A stretch of 64,000 nt of DNA from Eledone cirrhosa (Eukaryota). Position 1 is the first letter of the stretch. Each line of letters opens with the position of its first letter. Made by a program: the position numbers and the translations under genes. This document shows positions 41,234-46,000 of this stretch, one piece after another. Below the pieces are notes generated by a model. It ran no database searches. It saw nothing but the letters and a program-made list of their open reading frames with translations, and had not been told where the DNA came from. Location of the stretch: NCBI GenBank assembly GCA_964016885.1, contig OZ024760.1, positions 27,094,001-27,158,000 on the forward strand, given 5' to 3'.

Positions 41234-43052
41234 AAATTGGAATAAATGCTCTGAAATAGCGATATATATGTGAATATAGACATAGAATATTCGAAAATAT
41301 TCTGTATGTTTATAATAAACATTTTGAAGACCTAATCGCTATAGAATAGAATACGTCACGTATTACAATTAGATTCTCGATAAAAGCAAGGGAAGTAATC
41401 TACGCGTTTCATTCTTGTTAGAATTCATCAGGACTACATATCCAGTGCTTTTATCGAGAATGACACAGCTAGAGACTTATAGAATACTTAGCTGTGTACA
41501 GGAACTGGTTTGAAAGAGCGGTTGCCGGTCCGGCAGAAATTAGAAATTGGAATAAATGCTCTGAAATAGCGATATATATGTGAATATAGACATAGAATAT
41601 TCGAAAATATTCTGTATGTTTATAATAAACATTTTGAAGACCTAATCGCTATAGAATAGAATACGTCACGTATTACAATTAGATTCTCGATAAAAGCAAG
41701 GGAAGTAATCTACGCGTTTCATTCTTGTTAGAATTCATCAGGACTACATATCCAGTGCTTTTATCGAGAATGACACAGCTAGAGACTTATAGAATACTTA
41801 GCTGTGTACAGGAACTGGTTTGAAAGAGCGGTTGCCGGTCCGGCAGAAATTAGAAATTGGAATAAATGCTCTGAAATAGCGATATATATGTGAATATAGA
41901 CATAGAATATTCGAAAATATTCTGTATGTTTATAATAAACATTTTGAAGACCTAATCGCTATAGAATAGAATACGTCACGTATTACAATTAGATTCTCGA
42001 TAAAAGCAAGGGAAGTAATCTACGCGTTTCATTCTTGTTAGAATTCATCAGGACTACATATCCAGTGCTTTTATCGAGAATGACACAGCTAGAGACTTAT
42101 AGAATACTTAGCTGTGTACAGGAACTGGTTTGAAAGAGCGGTTGCCGGTCCGGCAGAAATTAGAAATTGGAATAAATGCTCTGAAATAGCGATATATATG
42201 TGAATATAGACATAGAATATTCGAAAATATTCTGTATGTTTATAATAAACATTTTGAAGACCTAATCGCTATAGAATAGAATACGTCACGTATTACAATT
42301 AGATTCTCGATAAAAGCAAGGGAAGTAATCTACGCGTTTCATTCTTGTTAGAATTCATCAGGACTACATATCCAGTGCTTTTATCGAGAATGACACAGCT
42401 AGAGACTTATAGAATACTTAGCTGTGTACAGGAACTGGTTTGAAAGAGCGGTTGCCGGTCCGGCAGAAATTAGAAATTGGAATAAATGCTCTGAAATAGC
42501 GATATATATGTGAATATAGACATAGAATATTCGAAAATATTCTGTATGTTTATAATAAACATTTTGAAGACCTAATCGCTATAGAATAGAATACGTCACG
42601 TATTACAATTAGATTCTCGATAAAAGCAAGGGAAGTAATCTACGCGTTTCATTCTTGTTAGAATTCATCAGGACTACATATCCAGTGCTTTTATCGAGAA
42701 TGACACAGCTAGAGACTTATAGAATACTTAGCTGTGTACAGGAACTGGTTTGAAAGAGCGGTTGCCGGTCCGGCAGAAATTAGAAATTGGAATAAATGCT
42801 CTGAAATAGCGATATATATGTGAATATAGACATAGAATATTCGAAAATATTCTGTATGTTTATAATAAACATTTTGAAGACCTAATCGCTATAGAATAGA
42901 ATACGTCACGTATTACAATTAGATTCTCGATAAAAGCAAGGGAAGTAATCTACGCGTTTCATTCTTGTTAGAATTCATCAGGACTACATATCCAGTGCTT
43001 TTATCGAGAATGACACAGCTAGAGACTTATAGAATACTTAGCTGTGTACAGG
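41234..43052 (-). mobile_element. 310-bp hammerhead-containing tandem repeat (retrozyme-like), ~5.9 units, 6 ribozymes on the minus strand
   Basis: Period 310 (41241 to 41551). Reverse-complement core TCATCAG ends at 41431, 41741, 42051, 42361, 42671 and 42981. Confidence 0.9.
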
Positions 43053-43053
43053 A

Positions 43054-46000
43054 CCTGTACACAGCTAAGTATTCTATAAGTCTCTAGCTGTGTCATTCTC
43101 GATAAAAGCACTGGATATGTAGTCCTGATGAATTCTAACAAGAATGAAACGCGTAGATTACTTCCCTTGCTTTTATCGAGAATCTAATTGTAATACGTGA
43201 CGTATTCTATTCTATAGCGATTAGGTCTTCAAAATGTTTATTATAAACATACAGAATATTTTCGAATATTCTATGTCTATATTCACATATATATCGCTAT
43301 TTCAGAGCATTTATTCCAATTTCTAATTTCTGCCGGACCGGCAACCGCTCTTTCAAACCAGTTCCTGTACACAGCTAAGTATTCTATAAGTCTCTAGCTG
43401 TGTCATTCTCGATAAAAGCACTGGATATGTAGTCCTGATGAATTCTAACAAGAATGAAACGCGTAGATTACTTCCCTTGCTTTTATCGAGAATCTAATTG
43501 TAATACGTGACGTATTCTATTCTATAGCGATTAGGTCTTCAAAATGTTTATTATAAACATACAGAATATTTTCGAATATTCTATGTCTATATTCACATAT
43601 ATATCGCTATTTCAGAGCATTTATTCCAATTTCTAATTTCTGCCGGACCGGCAACCGCTCTTTCAAACCAGTTCCTGTACACAGCTAAGTATTCTATAAG
43701 TCTCTAGCTGTGTCATTCTCGATAAAAGCACTGGATATGTAGTCCTGATGAATTCTAACAAGAATGAAACGCGTAGATTACTTCCCTTGCTTTTATCGAG
43801 AATCTAATTGTAATACGTGACGTATTCTATTCTATAGCGATTAGGTCTTCAAAATGTTTATTATAAACATACAGAATATTTTCGAATATTCTATGTCTAT
43901 ATTCACATATATATCGCTATTTCAGAGCATTTATTCCAATTTCTAATTTCTGCCGGACCGGCAACCGCTCTTTCAAACCAGTTCCTGTACACAGCTAAGT
44001 ATTCTATAAGTCTCTAGCTGTGTCATTCTCGATAAAAGCACTGGATATGTAGTCCTGATGAATTCTAACAAGAATGAAACGCGTAGATTACTTCCCTTGC
44101 TTTTATCGAGAATCTAATTGTAATACGTGACGTATTCTATTCTATAGCGATTAGGTCTTCAAAATGTTTATTATAAACATACAGAATATTTTCGAATATT
44201 CTATGTCTATATTCACATATATATCGCTATTTCAGAGCATTTATTCCAATTTCTAATTTCTGCCGGACCGGCAACCGCTCTTTCAAACCAGTTCCTGTAC
44301 ACAGCTAAGTATTCTATAAGTCTCTAGCTGTGTCATTCTCGATAAAAGCACTGGATATGTAGTCCTGATGAATTCTAACAAGAATGAAACGCGTAGATTA
44401 CTTCCCTTGCTTTTATCGAGAATCTAATTGTAATACGTGACGTATTCTATTCTATAGCGATTAGGTCTTCAAAATGTTTATTATAAACATACAGAATATT
44501 TTCGAATATTCTATGTCTATATTCACATATATATCGCTATTTCAGAGCATTTATTCCAATTTCTAATTTCTGCCGGACCGGCAACCGCTCTTTCAAACCA
44601 GTTCCTGTACACAGCTAAGTATTCTATAAGTCTCTAGCTGTGTCATTCTCGATAAAAGCACTGGATATGTAGTCCTGATGAATTCTAACAAGAATGAAAC
44701 GCGTAGATTACTTCCCTTGCTTTTATCGAGAATCTAATTGTAATACGTGACGTATTCTATTCTATAGCGATTAGGTCTTCAAAATGTTTATTATAAACAT
44801 ACAGAATATTTTCGAATATTCTATGTCTATATTCACATATATATCGCTATTTCAGAGCATTTATTCCAATTTCTAATTTCTGCCGGACCGGCAACCGCTC
44901 TTTCAAACCAGTTCCTGTACACAGCTAAGTATTCTATAAGTCTCTAGCTGTGTCATTCTCGATAAAAGCACTGGATATGTAGTCCTGATGAATTCTAACA
45001 AGAATGAAACGCGTAGATTACTTCCCTTGCTTTTATCGAGAATCTAATTGTAATACGTGACGTATTCTATTCTATAGCGATTAGGTCTTCAAAATGTTTA
45101 TTATAAACATACAGAATATTTTCGAATATTCTATGTCTATATTCACATATATATCGCTATTTCAGAGCATTTATTCCAATTTCTAATTTCTGCCGGACCG
45201 GCAACCGCTCTTTCAAACCAGTTCCTGTACACAGCTAAGTATTCTATAAGTCTCTAGCTGTGTCATTCTCGATAAAAGCACTGGATATGTAGTCCTGATG
45301 AATTCTAACAAGAATGAAACGCGTAGATTACTTCCCTTGCTTTTATCGAGAATCTAATTGTAATACGTGACGTATTCTATTCTATAGCGATTAGGTCTTC
45401 AAAATGTTTATTATAAACATACAGAATATTTTCGAATATTCTATGTCTATATTCACATATATATCGCTATTTCAGAGCATTTATTCCAATTTCTAATTTC
45501 TGCCGGACCGGCAACCGCTCTTTCAAACCAGTTCCTGTACACAGCTAAGTATTCTATAAGTCTCTAGCTGTGTCATTCTCGATAAAAGCACTGGATATGT
45601 AGTCCTGATGAATTCTAACAAGAATGAAACGCGTAGATTACTTCCCTTGCTTTTATCGAGAATCTAATTGTAATACGTGACGTATTCTATTCTATAGCGA
45701 TTAGGTCTTCAAAATGTTTATTATAAACATACAGAATATTTTCGAATATTCTATGTCTATATTCACATATATATCGCTATTTCAGAGCATTTATTCCAAT
45801 TTCTAATTTCTGCCGGACCGGCAACCGCTCTTTCAAACCAGTTCCTGTACACAGCTAAGTATTCTATAAGTCTCTAGCTGTGTCATTCTCGATAAAAGCA
45901 CTGGATATGTAGTCCTGATGAATTCTAACAAGAATGAAACGCGTAGATTACTTCCCTTGCTTTTATCGAGAATCTAATTGTAATACGTGACGTATTCTAT

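Follow-up and report, generated by a model that had tools for sequence, protein, structure and literature searches.

In a 64,000-nucleotide stretch of the genome of Eledone cirrhosa (assembly GCA_964016885.1, contig OZ024760.1, positions 27,094,001 to 27,158,000 of the forward strand; referred to as the window, whose numbering is used for plain coordinates), two arrays of a 310-bp tandem repeat with hammerhead ribozyme motifs meet head-to-head in a long, perfect palindrome. We found that this arrangement is the usual form of the 310-bp family and that the palindrome in the window, by itself, is an ordinary member and a standard product of it. As mechanism we favor, at a probability of about 0.63, that the enzyme of a Penelope-like element (PLE) primes cDNA synthesis from both cut DNA ends at two sites of one RNA, mostly a monomeric circle, and that the two cDNAs are subsequently joined end to end.

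A head-to-head array of retrozyme units in the window

The stretch 41234-43052 is the exact reverse complement of 43054-44872, with 0 mismatches over the 1,819 bp of each arm and the first mismatch at the 1,820th pair, and a single A at 43053 forms the spacer between the mirror arms. An earlier reading of the letters alone (the sequence-only reading) had described this 3.6-kb palindrome with its 1-nt spacer as a retrozyme-type array carrying six ribozymes that point left and ten that point right. These claims hold, as the array consists of 310-bp tandem units with one type I hammerhead each, and matches to the hammerhead core number 6 on the minus and 10 on the plus strand. The extent given at the time, 41234 to 44872, covers exactly the mirrored part, but the element continues for another 1.2 kb, to 46073. 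No unit in either arm differs from the first, and both outer ends of the insertion are 3’ ends of the ribozyme-sense strand. In what follows, these ends are designated start site 1 (left arm) and start site 2 (right arm), and unit positions are counted from window position 43054, which was set as position 1 of the 310-bp unit. Start site 2 of the right arm is an AT-rich stretch that matches the target. Both flanks belong to one (TA)n tract and run in the same direction (ATTTA outnumbers TAAAT by 102 to 2 on the left and by 69 to 5 on the right), and therefore the mirror ends at the element borders. The likeness to the inverted 5’ copies of PLE insertions, which had also been proposed, is borne out by the inverted arm, the tail at one end and the (TA)n target. 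Since no difference was found over 4,840 bp (15.6 units), where 2-3 would be expected, the array is probably young.

Each copy of the unit contains a type I hammerhead core together with stems I and II, an assignment based on the motif and on predicted folds. In these predictions the 310-nt unit folds with z = -5.2, and the self-cleavage site would be located at unit position 102. Stem III is self-complementary, and for two adjacent ribozymes the predicted minimum-energy structure is a double hammerhead sharing a 6-bp stem III, a pairing known for metazoan type I motifs (PMC4209133). Rfam searches at the gathering threshold yielded no match anywhere in the window. The unit has a GC content of 34%, no open reading frame (ORF) of at least 150 aa is present inside the array, and the unit lacks a reverse transcriptase or GIY-YIG ORF and in this respect is not an autonomous PLE. 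None of 140 sampled regions (see below) was seen running on into common flanking sequence. By every feature testable in sequence, the 310-bp family is a retrozyme that displays the insertion signature of PLEs. At unit position 79 (window 43132) the copy in the window has an A-U pair closing stem II, while 92 of 118 insertions have U-U.

Head-to-head insertion is the rule in the family

The core of one haplotype alone has 3,912 matches in the genome. Ends at site 1 (position 266/267 followed by an AT run) were found 1,312 times and ends at site 2 (about 229-241) 210 + 1,174 times, a ratio of about 1:1; the family comprises about 1,300 insertions in (TA)n tracts. Two samples were classified. The first consisted of the first 100 site-1 ends listed, all on contig C1, and contained 85 insertions with one inverted arm, 6 with a complex inversion, 6 with none and 3 that were unclassifiable (two at assembly gaps, one exceeding the fetched stretch); 84 of 84 simple, uncut inverted arms end at unit position 220-241. 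The second sample consisted of 40 site-2-anchored regions on contigs C2 and C3, 32 regions on C1 and those listed later being set aside. Here, an opposite arm was present in 36 cases and missing in 3, one region met a gap, and 34 of the 35 readable opposite arms end at 264-274.

Taken together, 127 of 136 classifiable insertions (91/97 and 36/39; about 93%) are head-to-head with one end of each kind. One arm nearly always terminates at 264-274 and the other at 227-241, leaving a gap of about 26-40 nt whose borders are blurred by AT microhomology. Single tail-to-tail insertions were seen in neither sample, except for short internal patches inside complex junctions. The anchors had been chosen on their AT run, but the unselected far ends likewise adjoin (TA)n in nearly all cases; any target-site duplication at these insertions, which in metazoan retrozymes exceeds 4 bp when present, is hidden by the (TA)n target. 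Four of the 140 sampled regions meet assembly gaps, and tight centers could be slightly undercounted. The sequence-only reading had recommended a search for 5’ inversions in other arrays. An inverted arm in 127 of 136 cases makes the head-to-head form the rule and the palindrome no exception.

Both arms of an insertion probably copy the same template

The family comprises at least 30 haplotypes. Both arms carry the same haplotype in 75 of 78 well-covered insertions, as compared to 9.5% for arms of different loci. Moreover, 19 private variants (private meaning found at one sampled locus, the sample representing less than 10% of the family) are fixed in every unit of both arms, which corresponds to a rate of 5.7e-4 per position. 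Single-unit variants within arrays occur at 4.7e-4. Because the two rates are about equal, the data are as expected if each insertion descends from one parental unit, i.e. from a monomer. Minor variants common to both arms in register were detected in 2 of 123 insertions, as against 112 unshared differences, and 148 of 165 within-array variants are singletons. At two loci, L065 and L044, the order of alleles is identical in both arms when counted from the outer ends, not from the center, indicating that both arms read one ordered template, which sometimes is a multimer. The multimeric or circular template postulated previously is in agreement with the common haplotype of the arms, the fixed private variants and the mosaics of L065 and L044. 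Recurrent variants inside arms were observed at L029 (period 7) and L049 (irregular), which suggests some later duplication or exchange.

Inner ends of the arms are scattered

The 118 simple junctions divide into 62 with microhomology, 16 blunt joints and 40 with inserted bases. Microhomology averages 2.4 nt versus 0.8 nt by chance (55 junctions), and several of the long inserts, judged by eye, resemble copies of nearby sequence. Offsets between the inner ends are near-uniform (n = 118): 3, 6, 10 and 15 junctions have offsets within 1, 5, 10 and 20 nt, respectively, where 1.1, 4.2, 8.0 and 15.6 are expected. In 36 of 117 insertions the site-2 arm exceeds its partner by more than one unit, and in 53 of 117 the site-1 arm does; therefore, neither arm is a mere copy of the other. 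Arm lengths are continuous and roughly exponential (Kolmogorov-Smirnov p 0.05-0.07), ranging from less than 1 to about 30 units.

Several candidate determinants of the inner ends failed. A stop of the cDNA at the hammerhead cut site was rejected (8 inner ends there versus 8.4 expected), and a stop of the first cDNA beside the start of the second, as in LINE-1 (L1), was likewise not detectable (11/85 within 15 nt versus 8.5 expected). Age-dependent deletion of palindrome centers is unsupported, as mutation load correlates neither with spacer size (rho 0.02) nor with length (rho -0.14), and, judged by the former value, the instability of such palindromes that the sequence-only reading had assumed was not seen.

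A model for two-ended priming on one RNA

The favored mechanism builds on the architecture, the two fixed outer ends, the haplotypes common to the arms and the scattered junctions, all of which were directly observed. Array transcripts would self-cleave and give rise to 310-nt circles. A PLE protein would cut both strands of a (TA)n tract, and extension would start at about unit position 267 on one DNA end and at about 232-241 on the other, the gap between both starts yielding the tail. Each reverse transcriptase would roll along the template, completing a number of turns that varies. Finally, the 3’ ends of the two cDNAs would be joined bluntly, through 1-6 nt of microhomology or with short inserted patches, and repair would fill in. 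The perfect center in the window would mean that both cDNAs stopped at the same unit position. The model has precedents: the purified PLE protein PAc, a predicted dimer, cuts and extends both strands of AT-rich DNA and begins at two internal RNA sites bracketing the tail (PMC11167929), and retrozyme circles are abundant in several animals, where they have been proposed as templates for tandem cDNA (PMC7229834). Going further, PLE insertion may be inherently two-ended, with a dimeric enzyme that starts at two fixed points of a single 310-nt ribozyme circle, rolls both ways and leaves more than a thousand inverted repeats of several kilobases; we consider the chances of this generalization to be about even.

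Several observations weigh against this mechanism. The RNA, the circles and the cleavage, like the enzyme and the order of steps, are what we infer. A partner PLE was not found in a partial search: 30 loci of one PLE-like family contain no unit-like terminal repeat, and no unit match was detected in the 3’ ends of 11 long ORFs that we take to be PLE-like from their motifs. (The GIY-YIG frames of the genome comprise 10,597 candidates, 150 of which were scored.) Arm lengths are correlated (rho 0.32, p 0.0005), which independent cDNAs would not predict; simultaneous synthesis by a dimer would fit. L065 and L044 require a multimeric template, and the arms of L039, L076 and L179 begin on different alleles and have no clean single-template fit. 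Tight junctions, with nearly coincident inner ends, are more frequent than expected (17 versus 5.3 at four unit positions, the window left out; P 4.5e-5), i.e. about threefold. Near-zero offsets also make up 6/15 and 5/15 of the joints listed from contigs of public sequencing runs, a selection that was kept out of the statistics. Furthermore, the start site of PAc in vitro did not differ between the two strands (PMC11167929), whereas both kinds of end are present in nearly all insertions of the 310-bp family.

Fold-back and the tight palindromic centers

The strongest alternative, though an unlikely one, is fold-back, in which one cDNA primes its own second strand and the resulting hairpin or dimer is cut at two sites and integrated. 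The haplotype identity between arms would follow naturally, the correlated arm lengths and the excess of tight junctions would fit, and self-priming has been argued for PLEs (PMC3846280). Moreover, 6 of the 17 tight junctions are located exactly at hairpins of the cDNA strand (3-4-bp stem, 3-nt loop), one such junction being common to three loci. However, offsets of more than 10 nt, evenly spread, account for 108 of 118, either arm may exceed the other by several units, and true mirror pairs are limited to 3 of 117 (0.9 expected, p 0.055). The arms in the window themselves are four units apart in length, and their center has no stem. Since the offsets are spread almost uniformly and the longer arm may be on either side, fold-back of one cDNA is not the main route, and self-priming fits at most the tight minority.

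For this minority, the genome-wide counts at the four unit positions are 6 (the site of the window, window included), 7, 4 and 1. Assuming independent ends, the observed use of microhomology and 1,250 inverted insertions, 0.85, 2.26, 1.28 and 0.97 are expected. The control sites alone have 12 tight junctions versus 4.5 expected, one of which may be on a duplicate contig. Given this roughly threefold excess, a few per cent of insertions probably arise by a minor route involving proximity or snap-back. The junction in the window most plausibly belongs to this tight class and was generated by snap-back, by an end-to-end jump or by coincidence; here, a step involving proximity or snap-back is rather likely, with coincidence as a serious possibility. 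The joint is blunt and without stem, a 1-nt loop without microhomology being no priming hairpin, and it is 1 base away from a snap-back product (3-bp stem, 3-nt loop) at G000:C1:5544374. Hence the fold-back origin offered by the sequence-only reading does not stand as the main route but is plausible for the center in the window.

Three simpler accounts of the tight centers fared poorly. A single fold-back hotspot at the site of the window failed, with 6 tight junctions there and 7, 4 and 1 at the controls. Pure chance as the cause of the 1-nt spacer is weakened by the threefold excess, and pause hotspots explain little of this excess (3.8% versus 3.5%).

Linear templates, growth in place and assembly artefacts

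It is quite unlikely that two-ended priming takes place on a linear template, a multimeric read-through transcript, instead of a circle. Such a template would account for the identical ordered mosaics in both arms of L065 and L044 and would agree with the lack of inner-end clustering at the cleavage site (8 versus 8.4 expected) and with the replacement of the stem-II-closing A-U by U-U in 92/118 insertions; in vitro, hammerhead cleavage is dispensable for insertion (PMC11167929). However, it predicts that parental variants recur in register, which was the case in only 2 of 123 insertions, with 112 differences unshared, and fixed private variants would require a bottleneck of one unit.

Even less probable is that a short inverted stub of PLE type was inserted first and its arms grew in place by slippage or unequal exchange. 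This process would also fix private variants in both arms, it could leave recurrent variants such as those of L049 and, with period 7, L029, and local amplification has been suggested in a 2026 retrozyme preprint (10.64898/2026.07.22.740005). Against it stand the 148 singletons among 165 within-array variants, the 0 differences among the 15.6 units in the window and the continuous, roughly exponential range of arm lengths from less than 1 to about 30 units; in addition, expansion would have had to set in at once and afterwards cease at each of about 1,300 loci.

An assembly or fold-back read artefact is hardly credible: the junction in the window was not seen in contigs of three runs from one sample (absence there is not conclusive), and these runs may be the assembly’s own source, but the flanks are not mirrored as in a fold-back chimera, the outer ends differ and match the two sites of the family, the form recurs in 127/136 insertions, and a zero-spacer junction of the same family (G000:C4:119953790) is contained in a run contig at depth 19.8. 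In the run contigs, head-to-head joints occur at depth 3-40, some of them in several runs, which is multi-read support, not independence. Of the two options left by the sequence-only reading, very recent or artefact, youth is retained (0 differences in 4,840 bp) and artefact is discarded in view of the unmirrored flanks and the 127/136 recurrences.

Comparison with known systems

Twin priming is a minority outcome for L1, and its arms derive from different parts of the RNA. It shares with the 310-bp family two primings per target, cDNAs joined through microhomology and a head-to-head junction (PMC10760644). In contrast, the second start is fixed in the 310-bp family, one sequence is copied into both arms, and arrival at the second primer does not end the first cDNA (see above).

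The insertion unit of endonuclease-positive (EN+) PLEs likewise features an inverted 5’-truncated copy beside the 5’ end, a 30-40-bp tail at one end and a (TA)n target (PMC8557442; PMC3846280). Compared to these elements, the 310-bp family is without an ORF, its two arms are arrays of multiple units measuring up to 9 kb, and inversion reaches about 93%. In both papers the PLE mechanism is left undefined or self-priming is favored (PMC8557442; PMC3846280), the mechanism of tandem and inverted insertion being called undefined (PMC8557442). PAc, from an Anolis Poseidon PLE, resembles the proposed enzyme in cutting and extending both strands and in the two starts bracketing the tail. It differs in that the template was linear, with neither a joined product nor a strand-specific start; no homology between start site and target was reported there, whereas site 2 of the 310-bp family is AT-rich (PMC11167929).

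With metazoan retrozymes without long terminal repeats (non-LTR type), the family shares a tandem arrangement of non-coding units, each of about 300 nt and with its own type I hammerhead, as well as low GC content and many loci (PMC7229834; 10.64898/2026.07.22.740005), and for those a movement as circles copied into tandem cDNA by PLE enzymes has been proposed (PMC7229834). Inverted arrays do not appear in the main texts of these two sources, whereas the head-to-head form with two fixed ends is the rule here. Expression and circles, which for the 310-bp family are predictions, were shown there. We found no description of head-to-head retrozyme arrays in a search limited to main texts and mostly to open-access literature.

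Features of the insertion and of its surroundings

The coordinates of the insertion and of associated features are compiled in Table 1. The second insertion of the family in the window differs in haplotype from the palindrome (position 233).

Table 1. Elements of the palindromic insertion and related features in the window.
Feature	Position	Strand	Remarks
Left arm	41234..43053	-	5.9 units of 310 bp with 6 hammerheads; outer (3’) terminus, start site 1, at unit position 269
Right arm	43054..46073	+	9.7 units with 10 hammerheads; outer (3’) terminus, start site 2, at unit position 230
Head-to-head junction	43049..43057	.	unit position 310 (minus) joined bluntly to position 1 (plus), without microhomology
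39-nt tail (unit positions 231-269)	41234..41272	-	at left end, missing from right end
First plus-strand type I hammerhead	43113..43166	+	core start 43125; cleavage site predicted behind 43155 (unit position 102)
First hammerhead of the minus strand, mirror copy	42940..42993	-	motif match
Left (TA)n target tract	39480..41233	.	same orientation as right tract
Right (TA)n target tract	46074..47550	.	same orientation as left tract
Second insertion of the 310-bp family	57421..61902	+	14.5 units, end at position 266, without inverted arm (minority form)

The same (TA)n tract contains, at 38690-39470, an unrelated, outward-facing pair of hammerhead cores (38884 minus, 39397 plus) with 51-nt inverted arms, which probably represents a second head-to-head stub of PLE type. 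A partial tandem of period 607 with a 245-bp identical direct repeat is located between (TA)n tracts at 47550-48401; the canonical hammerhead core has no match in this region. Remnants of reverse transcriptases, presumably of LINE type by their motifs, are present at 20978-21781, 24656-26273 and 31678-35157. A frameshifted ORF at 53884-55811, which we take to be PLE-like from its motifs, has at least 150 relatives at 80-100% identity with open frames of up to 727 aa. It had no match in Pfam, and Pfam and PDB searches with nearby PLE-like frames were uninformative.

Outside the window, L182:2420-2900 and L211:60-210 contain diverged relatives of the unit whose hammerhead is shorter and whose ends are similar, the one at L182 being head-to-head itself. 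The hammerhead core and stem II of small insertions at L219, L225 and L216 nearly match the commonest unit haplotype; the copies at L219 and L225 are head-to-head and have a longer tail. These three loci are a lead to the ancestor or the partner of the family. An ORF-bearing PLE-like family (L214, L215, L220) has a hammerhead core downstream and two end points that are tens of bases apart, tail-like. The unit is also present in sequencing runs of 18 organisms, the runs X2, X5, X9 and X13 yielding one 340-nt contig each with 0-2 differences. In raw reads of one such organism, 0 unit matches were found in 1,938 million letters, a figure that does not count as a test. Cross-sample carry-over rather than horizontal transfer is the likely, albeit unproven, explanation.

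Implications

The 310-bp family is very young, has about 1,300 insertions with both ends fixed, and its haplotypes can be traced; it thereby allows models of PLE insertion to be separated, favoring two primings on a common template over fold-back as the principal route. The family also supplies exact start sites, which makes the PLE insertion cycle testable in vitro. At a mean of about 9 units, the about 1,300 insertions add roughly 4 Mb of long inverted repeats to the genome. These repeats have no sign of erosion yet, which bears on the tolerance of palindromes and on a possible load of double-stranded RNA, for which the sequence-only reading had considered a role as siRNA or ADAR substrate. 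PLE-driven, circle-templated movement of retrozymes in animals has been a proposal (PMC7229834). If PLE insertion is inherently two-ended as outlined above, the family would be evidence at the genome level that animal retrozymes undergo rolling-circle reverse transcription, and two-ended priming would be one explanation for the tail, the tandem arrangement and the inversion of PLE insertions.

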